Sequence record: PZ452582.1 | Source of the DNA: a phage | DNA length: 64,000 nt | Reading direction: 5' to 3' (one strand) | Shown here: positions 7,231-46,893 of the stretch, piece by piece | Layout: each line of letters starts with the position of its first letter | How positions within the stretch are numbered: the first letter of the stretch is position 1 | Made by a program: the position numbers and the translations under genes | Notes under the pieces: generated by a model | Database searches by the model: none | Seen by the model: only the letters and a program-made list of their open reading frames with translations | Told to the model about the DNA's origin: nothing

Positions 7231-7620
7231 ATGACTAAAATTACTGTGAATTATACTGTTGATGTAAAAGATATTCAGCCAAAACACGTGCGTTCTGAAT
7301 CAAATCCACAAAACCAAAATAAAATTCGTCGAGCATGGGTTTTGTCTCTTTCTGATAACGCAATGGAAGTTATTCAGAACAAAATTAAATCTGCACCTGC
7401 TCGTCATGCGTATTATGAAGCTATCGATCGTGAAGTAAGTAATAAATGGATTGAACTAATGCGCAAACATACTACAGAATCCCTAAATGCCGGTGCTAAA
7501 TTTATTATGACTTCATGTGGTGAACGCCTTGAAGATGAATATTGCGGTAATGCAGATGAACGTCTAATTGTTGCTGCTCAAATTGTTGCCGAAACAATTG
7601 TGGCCGAGTTTAATAAATGA
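7231..7620 (+). CDS. rpbA: RNA polymerase-binding protein RpbA (putative)
   Basis: 129 aa, immediately upstream of the gene 45 region as in T4; assigned by position and length. Confidence 0.7.
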
Positions 7621-14233: not shown

Positions 14234-14299
14234 TTTTCACAAAACTGTTTACAAGACTGTTCTTCCATGGTACTATACAACTATCAACTACTGATACAG
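14234..14299 (+). promoter_or_regulatory. early promoter cassette (PeSL-type)
   Basis: GTTTAC 14247-14252, 17-nt spacer, TACTAT 14271-14276, then conserved leader ATCAACTACTGATACAG. Confidence 0.6.
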
Positions 14300-14313
14300 A
14301 TTTGGAGAATAAA

Positions 14314-14550
14314 ATGAAAATTGTTATGGGATGCTTAGCAGTTTGTTTAGTTGCATTAGCAGCAGTTCCATTTGTTAGTGTTGAAAATGATACTCAACCT
14401 GCGATTGAATCTAGCACCGTTATTCACACTAATGGTAAAATATCAGTTAAAATTGATGATAATCTTCATGTGAATACAAATGGATCTTTAGGTGTGCAAA
14501 TGGGTAATACCTGCATAAGCACTACTGGAGTAATTACTACTTGCATTTGA
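14314..14550 (+). CDS. small secreted or membrane protein
   Basis: 78 aa from ATG 14314; hydrophobic N-terminus MKIVMGCLAVCLVALAAVPFVS. Confidence 0.5.
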   Translation: MKIVMGCLAVCLVALAAVPFVSVENDTQPAIESSTVIHTNGKISVKIDDNLHVNTNGSLGVQMGNTCISTTGVITTCI

Positions 14551-18540: not shown

Positions 18541-19968
18541 GTGGTAGAAATTATTCTTTCTCATCTTATATTTGATCAAGCTTATTTTTCAAAAGTTTGG
18601 CCATATATGGATTCAGAATATTTTGAAAGTGGTCCAGCTAAAAATACATTCAAATTAATTAAATCTCATGTCAACGAGTACCATAGCGTTCCATCTATTA
18701 ATGCGTTAAATGTTGCATTAGAAAATAGTTCATTTACTGAAACAGAATATTCTGGTGTAAAAACACTTATTTCAAAACTGGCTGATTCTCCAGAAGACCA
18801 CAGCTGGTTAGTAAAAGAAACAGAAAAATATGTTCAGCAAAGGGCGATGTTTAATGCTACGTCTAAAATAATCGAAATTCAAACTAATGCTGAGCTTCCT
18901 CCGGAAAAACGAAATAAGAAAATGCCGGATGTTGGTGCTATTCCTGACATCATGCGGCAAGCATTATCTATTTCATTTGATAGTTACGTTGGTCATGATT
19001 GGATGGATGACTATGAAGCACGTTGGCTATCTTATATGAATAAAGCTCGTAAAGTTCCATTTAAACTCAGAATTCTAAACAAAATTACTAAAGGCGGAGC
19101 TGAAACAGGAACACTGAACGTTTTAATGGCTGGCGTTAACGTTGGTAAATCATTAGGATTGTGTTCATTAGCGGCAGATTATTTACAGCTCGGACATAAT
19201 GTTCTTTACATTTCCATGGAAATGGCAGAAGAAGTCTGTGCTAAGCGTATTGACGCTAACATGCTTGATGTTTCTCTTGATGACATTGATGATGGGCATA
19301 TTTCTTACGCTGAATATAAAGGAAAAATGGAAAAATGGCGTGAGAAATCTACCCTTGGTCGTTTAATCGTTAAGCAATATCCTACTGGTGGAGCAGACGC
19401 TAATACATTTCGATCACTTTTAAATGAATTAAAGCTCAAGAAGAATTTTGTTCCAACAATCATTATTGTCGACTATCTAGGTATTTGTAAATCTTGCCGC
19501 ATTAGAGTTTATTCAGAAAATAGTTACACAACTGTTAAAGCTATCGCAGAGGAATTGCGTGCTCTGGCTGTTGAAACCGAAACTGTTCTTTGGACTGCAG
19601 CACAGGTTGGTAAACAAGCTTGGGACTCTTCCGATGTTAACATGAGCGATATTGCAGAATCTGCTGGTCTTCCAGCAACAGCTGATTTTATGCTTGCGGT
19701 CATTGAAACCGAGGAGCTAGCAGCTGCTGAACAACAACTCATTAAGCAAATCAAATCACGATATGGTGATAAGAATAAGTGGAATAAGTTTTTGATGGGT
19801 GTTCAAAAAGGAAATCAAAAATGGGTAGAAATTGAACAAGATTCTACTCCAACTGAAGTGAGTGAAGTAGCAGGTTCACAACAGATTCAGGCTGAGCAGA
19901 ATCGCTATCAAAGAAATGAATCCACTCGAGCTCAGTTAGATGCTTTGGCAAATGAATTAAAATTTTAG
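18541..19968 (+). CDS. 41: gp41 replicative DNA helicase (DnaB-like)
   Basis: 475 aa MVEIILSHLIFDQAYF..., GTG start, Walker A GVNVGKS; T4 gp41 length. Confidence 0.95.
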   Translation: MVEIILSHLIFDQAYFSKVWPYMDSEYFESGPAKNTFKLIKSHVNEYHSVPSINALNVALENSSFTETEYSGVKTLISKLADSPEDHSWLVKETEKYVQQRAMFNATSKIIEIQTNAELPPEKRNKKMPDVGAIPDIMRQALSISFDSYVGHDWMDDYEARWLSYMNKARKVPFKLRILNKITKGGAETGTLNVLMAGVNVGKSLGLCSLAADYLQLGHNVLYISMEMAEEVCAKRIDANMLDVSLDDIDDGHISYAEYKGKMEKWREKSTLGRLIVKQYPTGGADANTFRSLLNELKLKKNFVPTIIIVDYLGICKSCRIRVYSENSYTTVKAIAEELRALAVETETVLWTAAQVGKQAWDSSDVNMSDIAESAGLPATADFMLAVIETEELAAAEQQLIKQIKSRYGDKNKWNKFLMGVQKGNQKWVEIEQDSTPTEVSEVAGSQQIQAEQNRYQRNESTRAQLDALANELKF

Positions 19969-19997
19969 TTTACAAGCTGACAAGACTATGGTATAGT
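19968..19997 (+). promoter_or_regulatory. early promoter
   Basis: GTTTAC 19968-19973, 17-nt spacer, TATAGT 19992-19997, upstream of dmd. Confidence 0.55.
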
Positions 19998-20026
19998 AGT
20001 CTTGTTGGTTAAATGAGGAGATTGTT

Positions 20027-23253: not shown

Positions 23254-23283
23254 GTTTACTTTCTCAGCTTGTTATGGTATTAT
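23254..23283 (+). promoter_or_regulatory. early promoter
   Basis: GTTTAC 23254-23259, 17-nt spacer, TATTAT 23278-23283; palindrome ACAAATTT-cat-AAATTTGT (23239-23257) overlaps the -35. Confidence 0.55.
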
Positions 23284-23308
23284 AAAATAAATTGCTGAGG
23301 ATGATATA

Positions 23309-32531: not shown

Positions 32532-33214
32532 TGTTTGATTTTATTATAGATTTTGAAACAATGGGAAGCGGTGAAAAAGCAGCTGTTATTGATTTGGCTG
32601 CAATTGCTTTTGACCCTAACCCAGAAGTAGTTGAAACGTTTGATGAATTAGTTTCACGTGGCATTAAAATCAAATTTGATTTAAAAAGCCAAAAAGGACA
32701 TCGTCTTTTTACTAAAAGCACTATCGAATGGTGGAAGAATCAATCTCCTGAAGCTCGAAAAAATATTGCACCATCCGATGAAGATGTAAGCACTATCGAT
32801 GGTATTGCAAAATTTAATGATTACATCAATGCACATAATATCGATCCTTGGAAATCTCAAGGCTGGTGCCGTGGAATGTCGTTTGATTTTCCAATTTTAG
32901 TCGATCTCATTCGTGATATTCAACGTCTTAATGGTGTTTCTGAGAATGAACTTGACACATTTAAGTTAGAACCATGTAAATTCTGGAATCAGCGTGATAT
33001 TCGTACCAGAATTGAAGCACTTCTCCTTGTTCGTGATATGACCACGTGTCCTCTTCCAAAAGGAACTTTAGATGGATTCGTTGCGCATGATTCTATTCAT
33101 GACTGTGCGAAAGACATCCTGATGATGAAGTATGCTTTGCGCTATGCTATGGGTCTTGAAGATGCTCCGTCAGAGGAAGAGTGCGATCCTCTATCTCTTC
33201 CAACAAAACGATAA
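32531..33214 (+). CDS. dexA: DexA 3-prime to 5-prime exonuclease (DEDD family)
   Basis: 227 aa; MFDFIIDFETMG exo I motif and HD motif; T4 DexA length. Confidence 0.9.
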   Translation: MFDFIIDFETMGSGEKAAVIDLAAIAFDPNPEVVETFDELVSRGIKIKFDLKSQKGHRLFTKSTIEWWKNQSPEARKNIAPSDEDVSTIDGIAKFNDYINAHNIDPWKSQGWCRGMSFDFPILVDLIRDIQRLNGVSENELDTFKLEPCKFWNQRDIRTRIEALLLVRDMTTCPLPKGTLDGFVAHDSIHDCAKDILMMKYALRYAMGLEDAPSEEECDPLSLPTKR

Positions 33215-33220
33215 AAAGTT

Positions 33221-33250
33221 GTTTACTTCCTCGGTTAGTTGTGGTATTAT
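33221..33250 (+). promoter_or_regulatory. early promoter
   Basis: GTTTAC 33221-33226, 17-nt spacer, TATTAT 33245-33250. Confidence 0.5.
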
Positions 33251-33277
33251 AACACCATAGCTACTGAGGATAATAAA

Positions 33278-33781
33278 ATGAAAATTTATCGTGTTGAATC
33301 ATCATTTAGTATTCTTAATTATGAAGATGCTATAACAATACGTCGAGATCTTTGTGTTCAAATAACGCCATACAGGAGTATAATGGATTCATGGAGCGAA
33401 GAGTGGTTATTACACGTAGGTTATGACAGACCTAATTTTATGCATCATAGTAATGATAATAAAAGAATTCCTCTTCCGCACGAAGACAAACTATTAGTTA
33501 AAAATGCTAATATAGCAATTAATACTAATTTTGAGAAAGAAGAATATGTAGGCGTAGATCACTATATTCCAGGATGGTTTATAGCTCTTTATCATTTTGC
33601 TTTTGCTAGTGAATATGATATGATGAGATGGTTCACACGAGAAGAGCGTGAAGAATTAGCTTCTAAAGGATTTTATCTCGCTGTATACGAAGTACCTGAA
33701 GATAAAGTTATCATTGGTGGGCATCAAGTAATGTTCCGCAAGTCACATGCCGAATTAAAAGGCTTTATTACCTTAGATTAA
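33278..33781 (+). CDS. hypothetical protein (MotB position)
   Basis: 167 aa from ATG 33278; follows dexA as motB does in T4; identity not confirmed. Confidence 0.5.
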   Translation: MKIYRVESSFSILNYEDAITIRRDLCVQITPYRSIMDSWSEEWLLHVGYDRPNFMHHSNDNKRIPLPHEDKLLVKNANIAINTNFEKEEYVGVDHYIPGWFIALYHFAFASEYDMMRWFTREEREELASKGFYLAVYEVPEDKVIIGGHQVMFRKSHAELKGFITLD

Positions 33782-33791
33782 AGAGAAAATT

Positions 33792-34229
33792 ATGATTAAA
33801 AATAATGCTGTTTATCAATTGAAAAAATTTGATGAAATTAAGAATTTTTCGGTACTGTCTAATACAGCTCATAATAAGTTTTGTGAACTTCTTGGTTTAA
33901 CTGGCGGATATCCTTTTACTGTTATTAGTGTTAATAGCGGAATTCTTATCGGTATGATGTATATTGAAATTAGAAACTATTATGGAATGGTATCACCGCT
34001 TATTATTTATGAAAAAGATTTTAGTCTATTGATAGAAATTGAAAAACCTGAAGATCCAACTGATCTACTGTGTAAGGCAGTTTATATTCGTCGTCCATTC
34101 GCGAATCCTGTGGGTGGATGGGTGACTGATCAGTGGATTGAAGATGGTGTTGAACTTCTGAACGTAGTTCATGCTGGAGAGTACTCTGTAGTTCCTCGCA
34201 GCGCAGTGATTAATGTTCGTGTAAGCTAG
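33792..34229 (+). CDS. hypothetical protein with shared C-terminal domain
   Basis: 145 aa; C-terminal TDQWIEDGVELLNVV...Y.VVP shared with 34303-34794. Confidence 0.5.
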   Translation: MIKNNAVYQLKKFDEIKNFSVLSNTAHNKFCELLGLTGGYPFTVISVNSGILIGMMYIEIRNYYGMVSPLIIYEKDFSLLIEIEKPEDPTDLLCKAVYIRRPFANPVGGWVTDQWIEDGVELLNVVHAGEYSVVPRSAVINVRVS

Positions 34230-34264
34230 TTTACAAACTCTTGGGACCAGAGTATAATGGTCCC
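34229..34264 (+). promoter_or_regulatory. early promoter with overlapping hairpin
   Basis: GTTTAC 34229-34234, TATAAT 34254-34259; inverted repeat GGGACCA/TGGTCCC (34243-34264) encloses the -10. Confidence 0.5.
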
Positions 34265-34302
34265 GTGGAGTATAAAATCTTTTTAACAAGTGAGAGATAA
34301 CT

Positions 34303-34794
34303 ATGATTATTAATATTGGTGAATTAGCTCGTGTATCTGATAAATCCCGCTCTAAAGCAGCAGGAAAATTGGTCGAAGTTGTAAGCATTCAGCTTAAACA
34401 CGGTGTTAAAGATGAAGATTCTGAAGTAAAAGTGCGTATCATTCCTAAAGATGGAAAGTCTAAACCTCAGTTTGGCTATGTTCGTGCGAAATTTCTTGAA
34501 TCTGCGTTTTTGAAAGCTGTTCCTGCTAAAGGAATTGAAACGATTGATACTTCGCATGTAGGTGTAGACTTTAAGTGGAAACTCGGTCAGGCTATTAAGT
34601 TCGTTGCTCCTTATGAGTTTGAATTTACTGAAGGTGAGGAAGGTGTTGTTAACCGTACTCGCGCTATGTGTGCATACATTACTGATCAATGGGTAGAAGA
34701 TGGCGTTAAGTTATACAACGCGGTATTTTTAGGAACATACAAAGTCATTCCTGAAAGTTGGATTAAACACTATAGCAAAGCTCGCTATGCATAA
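34303..34794 (+). CDS. hypothetical protein, paralog of 33792-34229 in C-terminal domain
   Basis: 163 aa; ...ITDQWVEDGVKLYNAVFLGTYKVIPES... Confidence 0.5.
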   Translation: MIINIGELARVSDKSRSKAAGKLVEVVSIQLKHGVKDEDSEVKVRIIPKDGKSKPQFGYVRAKFLESAFLKAVPAKGIETIDTSHVGVDFKWKLGQAIKFVAPYEFEFTEGEEGVVNRTRAMCAYITDQWVEDGVKLYNAVFLGTYKVIPESWIKHYSKARYA

Positions 34795-34891
34795 AGTTTA
34801 AAATTTTTTCATAAAACTATATACATCAGTAGTTGATTATGGTACTATATCAATATCAACTACTGATACAGAAAATAACTTGGAGAATAAA

Positions 34892-35161
34892 ATGGAAAAT
34901 TTAATTATCATCGAGCAATCTTTCAATGATTATGGTATGGCTTACGGTTATCGTGTGATAATGGAAGATTCTCGTGGATGTGTTATCGATATTGCTGAAT
35001 GTAAAGATTTACTGCAGCTTTTGAAGATTGTTCGCAAAAATTGGGATTGCGAAAATATTAAAGTTCGAGTTGTTACAGAAGAAGAAACTGTTTTTCATGA
35101 TGTAAAATTCGCTAAAGGTGCTGCTACTCTTCTGAAACGTATCGCTCCAATGTTTAATTAA
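34892..35161 (+). CDS. hypothetical protein
   Basis: 89 aa from ATG 34892; shares the leader and GGAGAATAAAATG start context with the ORF at 14314. Confidence 0.45.
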   Translation: MENLIIIEQSFNDYGMAYGYRVIMEDSRGCVIDIAECKDLLQLLKIVRKNWDCENIKVRVVTEEETVFHDVKFAKGAATLLKRIAPMFN

Positions 35162-35174
35162 TGAGGAAATTGTA

Positions 35175-35390
35175 ATGAAACGTAAAATTGTTCAGAACTG
35201 CACTAATGACGAATTTGAAGATGTATTATTCGATCCAGATTTGGTAGTAGTTCAAAAGGAACACACCATCAAGTTTACTCACTTGACTTCGGTTTATGTG
35301 TATGAAAAGGTTGGTGATAAACAACCAATTTACGGTGTATTTCGTGAAATTACTGAAGATGGCACAACTTACTGGAAGGAAATTTATTAA
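35175..35390 (+). CDS. hypothetical protein
   Basis: 71-aa ORF. Confidence 0.4.
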
Positions 35391-35809
35391 TGGCTATTAA
35401 ATTTGAAGTTAATAAATGGTATCAATTTAAAAATAAACAAGCTCAAGAAAAATTTATTAAATATCATACTGAAAACGGAATTTATGCACGACGTTTAGGT
35501 ATGGAACCTTTTAGAGTTACAGATATTGACTATCTTGGTCGTCCTACTAAACTTGTGACATCTAGTGGAAAATTGGCGTTATCTTCTGGTAAAGATATTT
35601 TGGATGAAGATTTTATCTGGCTTTCAGCGAGCGAAGCTGAGTTCTTTAATGAAGTGGAAAATCCATACCAGGCAGCCGAAGAGCAAGAGCAGGAAGAGCA
35701 AGAACAAATAGAAGATTTCACAGAATTTCCTGTCATGAAAGTTACTATTGAAAATAATGAACAGGCATGGTCCTTGTATCAGATGCTGAAAGCTCATTTT
35801 AAGGAATAA
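35390..35809 (+). CDS. hypothetical protein with acidic EQ-rich segment
   Basis: 139 aa; [14 protein letters not shown] low-complexity tract. Confidence 0.45.
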
Positions 35810-36644: not shown

Positions 36645-36696
36645 AGCTTTATGATTACCGGAGTATAATATTCCCGAAACCAAACGAGGATAAGTG

Positions 36697-38514
36697 ATGA
36701 TTAAGAATGAAATTAAAATTCTGAGCGATATTGAACATATCAAAAAGCGTAGCGGCATGTACATTGGCTCTTCTGCTAATGAAATGCATGAGCGCTTTCT
36801 GTTTGGTAAATGGGAAAGTGTTCAGTATGTACCTGGTCTTGTTAAGCTTATTGATGAAATTATCGATAACTCAGTAGATGAAGGTATTCGTACTAAGTTT
36901 AAATTCGCAAATAAAATTAATGTTACTATCAAAAACAATCAAGTAACAGTTGAAGATAACGGTCGTGGTATTCCACAAGCGATGGTTAAAACACCTACTG
37001 GTGAAGAAATTCCTGGTCCTGTTGCTGCCTGGACTATTCCAAAAGCAGGTGGTAATTTCGGTGATGATAAAGAACGTGTCACTGGCGGTATGAACGGTGT
37101 TGGTTCTAGTTTAACTAACATTTTTTCTGTGATGTTTGTCGGTGAAACTGGCGACGGTCAAAATAATATTGTAGTTCGTTGTTCAAATGGCATGGAAAAT
37201 AAATCATGGGAAACTATTCCTGGAAAATGGAAAGGAACTCGTGTTACTTTCATTCCTGATTTTATGTCATTTGAAACTAATGAGCTATCTCAAGTTTATC
37301 TTGACATTACGCTAGATCGTCTCCAGACACTTGCAGTAGTTTATCCTGATATTCAATTTACCTTTAATGGTAAAAAGGTTCAGGGCAATTTTAAGAAATA
37401 TGCACGCCAATATGATGAGCATGCTATTGTTCAAGAACAAGAAAATTGTTCTATTGCGGTTGGTCGTTCACCGGATGGTTTTCGTCAATTAACTTATGTG
37501 AATAACATTCACACTAAGAATGGTGGCCATCACATTGACTGTGTTATGGATGATATTTGTGAAGACCTTATTCCACAAATCAAACGTAAGTTCAAAATTG
37601 ATGTAACTAAAGCACGTGTTAAAGAATGTTTGACTATCGTTATGTTTGTTCGTGATATGAAAAACATGCGATTTGATTCTCAAACTAAAGAGCGTTTGAC
37701 TTCTCCATTTGGCGAAATTCGTAGTCATATTCAACTTGACGCTAAAAAGATTTCACGCGCTATTCTAAATAATGAAGCAATTCTGATGCCGATTATTGAA
37801 GCTGCTTTGGCTCGTAAATTGGCGGCAGAAAAAGCAGCAGAAACTAAAGCAGCTAAAAAGGCTTCTAAAGCTAAGGTTCATAAACATATTAAAGCGAATC
37901 TTTGCGGTAAAGATGCTGACACTACATTGTTTTTGACTGAGGGTGATTCTGCTATCGGATATCTTATTGATGTTCGTGATAAAGAACTTCATGGTGGTTA
38001 TCCATTGCGTGGTAAAGTTCTCAACAGTTGGGGTATGTCATATGCTGATATGCTTAAAAACAAAGAACTGTTTGATATTTGCGCAATCACTGGATTAGTT
38101 CTTGGTGAAAAAGCTGAAAACTTGAATTATCATAATATTGCTATTATGACCGATGCTGACCATGATGGTCTAGGAAGCATTTATCCTTCTCTGCTCGGGT
38201 TTTTTAGTAATTGGCCAGAATTGTTTGAGCAAGGACGAATTCGCTTTGTCAAAACTCCTGTAATCATCGCTCAGGTCGGTAAAAAACAAGAATGGTTTTA
38301 TACAGTCGCTGAATATGAGAGTGCCAAAGATGCTCTACCTAAACATAGCATCCGTTATATTAAGGGACTTGGCTCTTTGGAAAAATCTGAATATCGTGAG
38401 ATGATTCAAAATCCAGTATATGATGTTGTTAAACTTCCTGAGAACTGGAAAGAGCTTTTTGAAATGCTCATGGGAGATAATGCTGACCTTCGTAAAGAAT
38501 GGATGAGCCAGTAG
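36697..38514 (+). CDS. 39: gp39 topoisomerase II large (ATPase) subunit, unsplit
   Basis: 605 aa from ATG 36697; GyrB-like GHKL and TOPRIM regions in one ORF (T4 splits this into 39 plus 60). Confidence 0.93.
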   Translation: MIKNEIKILSDIEHIKKRSGMYIGSSANEMHERFLFGKWESVQYVPGLVKLIDEIIDNSVDEGIRTKFKFANKINVTIKNNQVTVEDNGRGIPQAMVKTPTGEEIPGPVAAWTIPKAGGNFGDDKERVTGGMNGVGSSLTNIFSVMFVGETGDGQNNIVVRCSNGMENKSWETIPGKWKGTRVTFIPDFMSFETNELSQVYLDITLDRLQTLAVVYPDIQFTFNGKKVQGNFKKYARQYDEHAIVQEQENCSIAVGRSPDGFRQLTYVNNIHTKNGGHHIDCVMDDICEDLIPQIKRKFKIDVTKARVKECLTIVMFVRDMKNMRFDSQTKERLTSPFGEIRSHIQLDAKKISRAILNNEAILMPIIEAALARKLAAEKAAETKAAKKASKAKVHKHIKANLCGKDADTTLFLTEGDSAIGYLIDVRDKELHGGYPLRGKVLNSWGMSYADMLKNKELFDICAITGLVLGEKAENLNYHNIAIMTDADHDGLGSIYPSLLGFFSNWPELFEQGRIRFVKTPVIIAQVGKKQEWFYTVAEYESAKDALPKHSIRYIKGLGSLEKSEYREMIQNPVYDVVKLPENWKELFEMLMGDNADLRKEWMSQ

Positions 38515-46822: not shown

Positions 46823-46852
46823 GTTTACAACCAAAGCATACTGTGGTACTAT
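46823..46852 (+). promoter_or_regulatory. early promoter cassette upstream of motA
   Basis: GTTTAC 46823-46828, TACTAT 46847-46852; preceded by a 14-nt A tract (46798-46811). Confidence 0.55.
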
Positions 46853-46893
46853 ACAACTATCAACTGCTGATACAGAATTACGGAGATTAGAAA

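Follow-up and report, generated by a model that had tools for sequence, protein, structure and literature searches.

A conserved RNA hairpin spans the -10 element of the motB early promoter and adjoins a RegB site in a T4-type phage

The motB.1 and motB genes encode paralogs with a common C-terminal domain

The window analysed here, 64,000 nucleotides of phage DNA (record PZ452582.1), is a segment of a Tequatrovirus (T4-type) genome with 99% identity to several sequenced coliphages, and its + strand is the direction of early transcription. Genes run in the order dda, dexA, motB.2 (start codon ATG at 33278), motB.1, motB, an extra small ORF, cef, goF and gene 39. The two open reading frames that a sequence-only reading had placed at 33792-34229 and 34303-34794 are exact (145 aa and 163 aa) and correspond to motB.1 and motB. 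The spacer between them is 73 nt long: the motB.1 stop codon TAG (34227-34229) runs into a composite cassette at 34229-34277, followed by the motB Shine-Dalgarno sequence at 34292-34297 and the motB ATG at 34303. The features of the locus are as follows.

33792-34229, + strand: motB.1 coding sequence, 145 aa (ORF; annotated motB.1 in relatives; phrog_2333, E 1e-67; AlphaFold2 model)
34038-34214, + strand: MotB-like C-terminal domain of MotB.1, aa 83-141, core motif TDQWIEDGVELLNVV (PHROG, Pfam, BLASTP, invariant residues)
34229-34235, + strand: -35 element GTTTACA of the motB early promoter (promoter scan, 11/12; T4 early consensus; invariant in the cassette family)
34237-34271, + strand: predicted extended RNA hairpin, 13 bp with one bulge, lower stem ACUCU with GGAGU (RNAfold; lower stem predicted in most variants)
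34243-34264, + strand: upper stem-loop, GGGACCA / loop GAGUAUAA / UGGUCCC (perfect inverted repeat; -12.3 kcal/mol; covariation)
34253-34258, + strand: -10 element TATAAT, in the loop except for its last T, which opens the 3' arm (sequence, promoter scan)
34265, + strand: predicted motB transcription start, a G, 7 nt past the -10 (standard sigma-70 spacing)
34267-34277, + strand: RegB/S1 endoribonuclease target GGAGUAUAAAA, cut between 34268 and 34269 (identity to the cleaved T4 motB leader site; consensus match)
34292-34297, + strand: motB Shine-Dalgarno GAGAGA, outside the conserved hairpin (sequence; AGAGAGA conserved in relatives)
34303-34794, + strand: motB coding sequence, 163 aa (ORF; Pfam PF17613 over the full length, E 1e-100; literature)
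34558-34773, + strand: C-terminal domain of MotB, approximate limits, with core ITDQWVEDGVKLYNAVFLGTYKVIPES at aa 124-152, homologous to MotB.1 aa 83-141 (BLASTP, alignments, reciprocal PHROG matches)

MotB is a DNA-binding early protein that joins an N-terminal KOW-like domain to a C-terminal barrel, and MotB.1 joins an N-terminal LSm/SH3-like barrel to a MotB-like C-terminal barrel. The suggestion that the two proteins share a C-terminal segment and differ at their N-termini held up on alignment. BLASTP between them gave 16/29 identical residues (E 4e-10); MotB.1 aa 104-139 matched the Pfam motB family PF17613 (E 8.5e-8; 32.7 bits, above the curated cut-off of 25 bits, at profile positions 118-153 only), which MotB itself matches across its full length with 334.8 bits; and profile comparison widened the shared region to MotB.1 aa 83-141, which matched the MotB PHROG family with E 7e-15. 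Nine residues are invariant in both families (L93, D113, Q114, W115, E117, G119, L122, N124 and V126). Structure prediction of the shared domain, run with AlphaFold2 on the 145-aa MotB.1, produced a model with two beta-rich domains (pLDDT 83.8), of which the C-terminal one is five-stranded. Foldseek matches of this model in the PDB were limited to weak tandem Tudor/Agenet/KOW-like hits (E ~1e-3, TM 0.3-0.4) that are consistent with two SH3-like barrels and not diagnostic of them, and a PDB sequence search with MotB and MotB.1 returned nothing meaningful.

motB.1 and motB are known T4 paralogs with a common small C-terminal beta-barrel. Son et al. 2021 (PMC7827196) described the conserved C-terminal domain and the differing N-termini of T4 MotB and MotB.1, proposed a duplication, and grouped 102 homologues into four architectural categories. 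The N-terminal domain of MotB.1 was modelled as an LSm/SH3-like barrel by Kim et al. 2025 (PMC12152347), who found no growth phenotype for a motB.1 deletion; the laboratory phenotype is slight for motB.1 deletion or motB knockdown (PMC12152347, PMC7827196). The pair in our window resembles the published family in being neighbouring early genes with a common C-terminal domain and distinct N-terminal domains. It differs in that the window's MotB.1 is the full-length protein of 145 aa, whereas the T4 reference protein that has been studied is a 119-aa frameshift product.

The frameshift stems from one G too many in the motB.1 gene of the T4 reference record (NC_000866, around 7297-7314; CAATGGATTGGAAGATGG). 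It leaves a MotB.1 of only 119 aa, in which the greater part of the shared domain is lost. The extra G is absent from 30 of 35 other loci examined, which carry the unshifted sequence and include 'T4 strain wild', and the other five fit neither pattern. In the other genomes examined, again including 'T4 strain wild', MotB.1 is 143-145 aa long with a full MotB-like domain. Published MotB.1 experiments and structure models used the 119-aa T4 reference product, from which most of this domain is missing.

Among phages the locus is mosaic: the N-terminal domain of motB.1 is swapped, and an extra ORF is found 3' of motB. At one locus (L025) motB.2 and motB.1 are deleted with breakpoints at 33310 and 34228, so that the deletion starts inside motB.2 and ends at the edge of the cassette. 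RB6-type phages have a breakpoint at ~34503, inside motB; nucleotide similarity extends up to that point, and we therefore rejected the cassette as the recombination breakpoint in these phages.

The motB promoter is nested in a stable hairpin

The motB promoter consists of TTTACA (34230-34235), a 17-nt spacer and TATAAT (34253-34258); with an 11/12 match it is the top-scoring site in 5.5 kb. The T4 early -35 consensus is GTTTAC (PMC1524935). Activity of this promoter has been shown in the literature on the identical T4 sequence, where Durand et al. 2006 (PMC1702504) assign reverse-transcriptase stops to 'the motB promoter'. The sequence 5' of the -35 is the 3' end of motB.1, GTTCGTGTAAGCTA, which has a moderate AT content; in the T4-type allele this sequence reads TTTTGAATTAATA. 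Standard sigma-70 spacing predicts that the motB transcript begins at ~34265.

A 7-bp inverted repeat had been reported at 34243-34264, with the -10 inside its loop at 34254-34259. The repeat is exact: GGGACCA (34243-34249) and TGGTCCC (34258-34264) are complementary at 7/7 positions, five of which are G-C pairs, and enclose an 8-nt loop. The TATAAT also stands, at coordinates one base lower than had been given, and it occupies the loop plus one stem base, its last T being the first base of the hairpin 3' arm. Folded as RNA, the upper stem is worth -12.3 kcal/mol, and RNAfold extends it to 34237-34271 at -18.7 kcal/mol (z = -5.0; none of 200 shuffles matched this stability). In the extended fold, a GGAG just past the upper stem pairs with an invariant CUCU of the promoter spacer. 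The 5' arm of the stem-loop lies in the promoter spacer and the 3' arm between the -10 and the predicted start site. RNA started at ~34265 would be missing the 5' arm and hence be unable to fold into the hairpin, which would form only in RNA arriving from upstream, that is, in the motB.2-motB.1 message.

Perfect GC-rich 7-bp hairpins are about 5-fold enriched in the window, with 19 found where Markov simulations give 3.4 +/- 2.3. The majority of the remaining ones are UUCG-type tetraloop hairpins, reportedly of a kind known in T4 (Tuerk et al. 1988). Stems that span a -10 element occur at 3/12 strong early promoters in the window (19968, 33221 and 34229), against 0.09 expected (P ~0.0005); a weaker fourth layout of this type lies at 23254 and a fifth just past motB, at 34820-34867. 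The cassettes at 33221 and 34820 are neighbours of the motB cassette. The exact motB cassette itself is present in the window in one copy only. A search of 33000-35500 against Rfam returned no family at E up to 1.

A second hairpin at 34277-34298 is neither significant (z -0.26) nor conserved, and on these grounds we rejected the idea that it brings GGAG near the AUG as a distal Shine-Dalgarno sequence. A small upstream ORF using GGAG was likewise rejected, as a suitably spaced start codon is absent.

Stem pairing is conserved while stem sequence is not

We compared motB upstream regions from Tequatro-, Dhaka- and Gaprivervirus genomes and from metagenomes, which yielded 13 distinct sequences. 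Their stems occur as GGGACCA/TGGTCC(C/T), GGGATCA/TGGTCCT, GGGGCCA/TGGTCCC, GGGGTCA/TGACCCC, GGGGTCG/TGGCCCC, GAGAGCCAT/ATGGCTCTC and GAGGGCCAT/ATGGCTCTC. Across the three genera, 100% of cells in the six shared pairs are paired, with compensatory double changes at 3/6 pairs, and slid controls pair at 17-55%. The Mosigvirus motB promoters examined have no hairpin, which shows that the hairpin is not required for motB expression.

The cassette extends well beyond motB. A pattern scan of IMG/VR for its invariant flanks, TACAAACTCTT-N8-AGTATAAT-N8/9-GGA, recovered 31 stretches that reduce to 18 distinct 42-nt cassettes with 11 stem versions. They precede motB as well as at least 10 unrelated genes of other T4-like phages, and a single genome often has two or three of them. 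The flanks are invariant, including the spacer AAACTCTT and a GAG 5' of the -10, while the stem covaries: 99.2% of 126 stem cells pair, double changes are found at 4/7 pairs (C-G/G-C flips among them), and the covariation score of 0.476 compares with 0.226 in shuffles and was reached by 0/500 of them. The sole true mismatch comes from one copy in which the register is shifted. The family has 12 non-Watson-Crick stem pairs, every one of them G.U when read on the + strand and not one A.C; this polarity speaks for a helix formed by + sense RNA and against a palindrome acting as DNA. Comparative analysis thus shows that pairing of the stem is selected at the RNA level, although conservation among paralogous copies of the cassette could in part reflect recent copying instead of independent selection.

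These data bear on two other explanations of the repeat. One holds that it is a functionless by-product, arising by chance from a GC-containing promoter spacer; a 7-bp stem is short, Mosigviruses manage without one, and no laboratory phenotype is known. Chance would nonetheless have to account for the fold z-score of about -5, the enrichment of GC-rich hairpins and the recurrence of the -10-spanning layout, and it is effectively refuted by the compensatory changes and the near-complete pairing, so that we give it almost no credence.

The other holds that the repeat acts as DNA: it might regulate the promoter as a cruciform or palindromic binding site, or be a recombination hot spot through which phages exchange the cassette and its adjacent genes, as in the mini-circle model proposed for promoter-early stem-loops (PeSLs). 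Arbiol et al. 2010 (PMC2839356) detected recombination between PeSL cassettes by inverse PCR and speculated about a stem-recognising protein; the occurrence of a cassette with invariant flanks before at least 10 unrelated genes also fits such shuffling, as does the mosaic structure of the locus, with its motB.1 domain swap, its extra ORF after motB and the deletion of motB.2 and motB.1 in L025. However, what is conserved across the 11 stem versions is pairing and not sequence, and each of the 12 imperfections (G.T on the + strand) breaks the DNA palindrome and keeps the RNA helix. The invariant flanks would suffice for homologous recombination with no need of a stem, and the breakpoints in RB6-type phages (~34503) and L025 (33310/34228) lie near the stem and not within it. 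We consider a DNA-level role improbable.

A RegB site takes the place of a U-tract

The sequence-only reading had proposed that the layout could couple termination of the upstream gene to promoter activity. A GC-rich stem-loop of the kind found in intrinsic terminators is present, but the U-rich tract is not: in the window the stem is followed by GUGGAGUAUAAAAUC, and no U-tract stands 3' of the stem in any cassette variant examined. We therefore rejected a canonical intrinsic terminator, and any termination at the hairpin would be non-canonical. Our literature search found no transcript-end maps of T4 at this position. Of the coupling proposal, the promoter within a hairpin is real, selected and matches the PeSL cassettes, and a link between the end of the upstream message and the start of the next is reasonable given PeSL attenuation; the classical terminator falls, and an effect of the hairpin on promoter activity found no support.

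The hairpin could still terminate or attenuate transcription of the motB.2-motB.1 unit by other means, releasing or stalling polymerase at the motB promoter and so preventing occlusion and balancing expression. This is also the original PeSL model. The stem is stable, GC-rich and only 14 nt past the motB.1 stop codon, and in RB49 one PeSL stem-loop cut lacZ expression as strongly as rrnB T1 (PMC2839356). Promoter-coupled terminators are moreover reported to be common in bacteria (Fletcher et al. 2026 preprint, 10.64898/2026.08.19.745784), where, as here, the DNA separating tandem genes serves both a termination-type stem-loop and the promoter that follows. Their geometry is different, however: the bacterial stem overlaps the -35, with a T-tract immediately 5' of the -10 and an RNA end ~10 bp before the next start, whereas the motB stem brackets the -10 and has no T-tract. 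A terminator scan did not call the hairpin at 34243-34264, the sequence 3' of the stem in the variants is GUGGAGUAUAAAA, ACUGGAGAAUAAA or ACGGAUUAUAAA, and the conserved element at this position is a RegB site. On balance we regard it as rather unlikely that the hairpin is a true terminator or attenuator of the motB.2-motB.1 unit.

The RegB/S1 site directly past the stem, which had been overlooked, offers a different way to end the upstream message. It starts two bases past the upper stem (GGAGTATAAAA, 10/11 to the consensus GGAGRAYARAA), T4 is identical there, and all cassette copies retain GGA(G/U) and an A-rich tail at its position. Cleavage at this sequence has been demonstrated in T4: for Durand et al. 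2006 (PMC1702504) the motB leader was the model RegB substrate, with efficient cutting both in vivo and in vitro; their minimal in vitro substrate has GGAGUAUAAAA at its 3' end, and mutations of the fourth G lower cleavage in vivo. The site in the window is the same 11-nt sequence, again in the motB leader and not in the Shine-Dalgarno sequence, with the cut falling between the second G and the A (PMC1702504; review PMC3014915). RegB is inhibited by RNA structure, and its cut marks a message for decay through PNK and RNase E/G (review PMC3014915). In computed folds, GGAG is unpaired in the promoter-started RNA and paired in the lower stem of the read-through RNA. The portions of Durand et al. 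(PMC1702504) available to us do not discuss the upstream hairpin or read-through RNA, nor do they contain the word 'hairpin', and the in vitro RNA they describe seemingly had the 3' arm only. Elsewhere in the window, the association recurs: 3/9 RegB-consensus sites, counted over the whole window, have an unusually stable upstream hairpin ending at or beside the GG.

The neighbouring motB.2 leader has an arrangement of its own. The motB.2 promoter (33221-33250) lies in a hairpin of 17 bp (33228-33270), which masks the motB.2 Shine-Dalgarno sequence: both this sequence and GGAU belong to the 3' strand. According to Durand et al. (PMC1702504), RegB cleaves at the motB.2 intergenic GGAU, and the motB.2 leader contains only one GGAU. 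Dhakaviruses keep this promoter-hairpin arrangement with a different sequence.

The cassette is of the PeSL type and has a third module

PeSLs were defined in RB49/phi1 (Arbiol et al. 2010, PMC2839356) and extended to the PST/T4 pair with a promoter consensus of TTTACW-N17-TAYWAT (Comeau et al. 2014, PMC4122927). Their stem-loops were proposed to attenuate incoming transcription, the RB49 lacZ construct being the one example for which this was shown; G-T pairs are marked in the stems, and overlap with the -10 box is a listed subclass (PMC2839356). PeSLs also have an AT-rich tract upstream of the -35, where the window has the moderately AT-rich 3' end of motB.1. The motB cassette shares several other PeSL features. 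It is an intergenic composite that spans the distance from stop codon to next start codon; its sigma-70-like early promoter, TTTACA-17-TATAAT, fits the T-even consensus; its stable stem-loop (-12.3 to -18.7 kcal/mol) overlaps the -10, among the two commonest PeSL positions; its stems include G-T pairs; and in plastic regions it recurs in front of small early genes that are unrelated. The motB hairpin-promoter element is real and functional, and of the known PeSL type.

In other respects it departs from the PeSLs so far described, which come mainly from RB49/phi1 (with stems of the form G(n)...C(n)), PST and nt-1, the PST stems being drawn just 5' of the promoter. A proven RegB site forms a conserved third module of the motB cassette; covariation and strand-specific G.U pairs point to RNA and not to a DNA recombination signal; and this cassette is present in a single copy in the genome.

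The cassette can also be compared with the translational control of T4 genes e, soc, 49 and I-TevI (PMC3014915), in which a promoter likewise lies inside a hairpin and long transcripts fold while short ones do not. In those genes the promoter is a late one and the hairpin sequesters the Shine-Dalgarno sequence or AUG. The motB Shine-Dalgarno sequence (34292-34297), by contrast, lies 21 nt past the hairpin; pairing is confined to the RegB GGAG. The motB.2 cassette (33228-33270), with its Shine-Dalgarno sequence in the hairpin 3' strand, does conform to the e/soc/49 model.

Discussion

We propose that the motB.1-motB spacer is a composite cassette of PeSL type that starts motB RNA and whose hairpin and RegB site punctuate read-through RNA, insulating the upstream unit; we judge this account probable, if by no means secure. 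Its three nested parts would be a strong sigma-70 early promoter, an RNA stem-loop, and the RegB/S1 site two bases further on. As motB.1 has no terminator of its own and ends 14 nt short of the stem, polymerase arriving from upstream must transcribe the whole hairpin. In that RNA the hairpin would cap the 3' end left by RegB, whose cut GG^AG falls 4 nt past the upper stem; the last two G's of the cut upstream fragment would pair in the lower stem, and such an end would be expected to resist 3' exonucleases. The hairpin may in addition slow, pause or attenuate RNA polymerase, and by these means the upstream unit would be insulated from the motB unit. In RNA started at the motB promoter, GGAG would be unpaired at ~+3 to +6 and open to RegB, leading to rapid early shut-off of motB mRNA. 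One step sits uneasily with the rest: pairing of GGAG in the lower stem should inhibit RegB in read-through RNA, which conflicts with a cut followed by capping unless the nascent RNA is cleaved. Cleavage of nascent RNA is suggested by Durand et al. (PMC1702504).

A broader generalization, which we put forward more tentatively and regard as possible rather than probable, is that T-even phages carry a dispersed three-part early cassette, composed of a promoter, a -10-spanning hairpin and either a RegB/S1 site or a Shine-Dalgarno sequence, in which the origin of the transcript decides the fate of the RNA. Read-through RNA would fold the hairpin, hiding GGAG or the Shine-Dalgarno sequence or capping a RegB-made 3' end, and RNA started inside the cassette, being unable to fold, would be translated and quickly cut. 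If this is correct, early genes would have their own version of the control that acts on e, soc and 49 through late promoters inside hairpins, and the role of PeSL stems would lie in RNA instead of in recombination.

The paralogs, the promoter, the RegB site and the promoter/stem-loop architecture were all known previously. What comparative sequence analysis adds is the case for selection at the RNA level and for the three-part nature of the cassette. The advance for T4 biology is an incremental one, in that the motB early promoter, the RegB site of the motB leader and the PeSL stem-loops, which had been described separately, are joined into one conserved, mobile cassette. It also supplies evidence at the level of sequence that PeSL stems are selected as RNA, a point of relevance to the punctuation and shut-off of early polycistronic messages.

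Frameshift in the reference motB.1

The motB.1 gene of the T4 reference (NC_000866/AF158101) carries one additional G (GATTGGAAGATGG vs. GATTGAAGATGG) at L001 1798-1815, that is, NC_000866 about 7297-7314, complement, matching window about 34134-34150. This extra G gives rise to the annotated T4 MotB.1 of 119 aa, with the C-terminus ...TDQWIGRWR, and it is this truncated form that was used in published experiments and AlphaFold models. The sequence is unshifted in 30 of the 35 other loci compared at this point, among them 'T4 strain wild' (KJ477684), where the 143-aa ORF is intact.

Variation across the motB locus

Homologues of MotB.1 are 143 to 252 aa long and show swapped or duplicated N-terminal modules. 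In one natural variant, the metagenome contig L025 (Ga0079226_10038823, about 1100-1130), motB.2 and motB.1 are almost entirely absent. The stretch it lacks corresponds to window 33311-34227; motB.2 codons 1-11 are joined to the final motB.1 codons, and the deletion stops at the motB cassette's upstream edge. In some Tequatro- and Mosigviruses the motB allele is divergent (about 44% identity), and a second MotB-like gene lies directly 3' of it. Further variation lies between motB and cef, where T4 has no gene annotated at the place of an 89-aa ORF and where relatives L022 and L025 are missing window about 34900 to about 35105-35155.

34892-35161: 89-aa ORF between motB and cef (phrog_3720)
L017 (RB6) 1504-2406; also L013, L016, L018, L019: divergent motB allele and 139-aa MotB-like gene

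Downstream, the gene 39 topoisomerase subunit is one 606-aa ORF (window 36694-38514); in T4 its coding is split into genes 39 and 60.

Promoter-hairpin cassettes

Among IMG/VR contigs from Dhaka-, Gapriver- and Mosig-type phages (L038-L068), the motB-type cassette is found ahead of at least 10 genes unrelated to one another, and a single genome can hold as many as three copies; the encoded N-termini include MSQAIKNVLN, M(S/T)LRDNSFVA, MNTLKKLVEF and MTTYMTRRDV. Its flanks (GTTTACAAACTCTT...GAGTATAAT) are invariant and its stem covaries, followed by GGA(G/U) and an A-rich tail.

The window itself holds further promoters associated with hairpins, and repeats of one cassette leader:

33221-33280: motB.2 cassette region; early promoter GTTTACT-17-TATTAT, -10 at 33245-33250
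34820-34872: third cassette, directly 3' of motB; TATACA-17-TACTAT promoter (with TG)
14247-14314 and 46824-46892: regions with the other copies of the third-cassette leader
19968-20006: early promoter after gene 41; stem ACAAGACTA/TAGTCTTGT bracketing the -10
23254-23299: early promoter; -10 bracketed by a CUCAGC...GCUGAG stem

The third-cassette promoter is enclosed by a hairpin with 20-nt arms (34825-34867), and its 32-nt leader (GGTACTATA..CAACTACTGATACAGA) occurs three times in the window (at 14269, 34841 and 46845), with a consensus RegB site or a Shine-Dalgarno (GGAGAATAAAA or GGAGATTAGAA) after each copy. The stem after gene 41 folds at -13.8 kcal/mol (z -5.9), and that at 23254 continues into GAGGAU, a Shine-Dalgarno/RegB-like site.

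GC-rich tetraloop hairpins, mostly UUCG-type, are also numerous (window 1514, 2784, 14143, 18232, 25895, 36627, 46766 and 51108) and explain the greater part of the window's five-fold enrichment in GC-rich perfect stems.

Upstream of motB.2, a 17-bp RNA hairpin (33228-33270) encloses the early promoter, and its 3' strand carries both the Shine-Dalgarno GAGG of motB.2 and the RegB-cleaved GGAU (33268-33271). The arrangement is retained in Dhakaviruses (JS98 and others), where it is built from another sequence (UUCUCCUCAUG...CAUGAGGAGAA). The Shine-Dalgarno and GGAU would be masked in read-through RNA arriving from upstream and exposed in promoter-started RNA.
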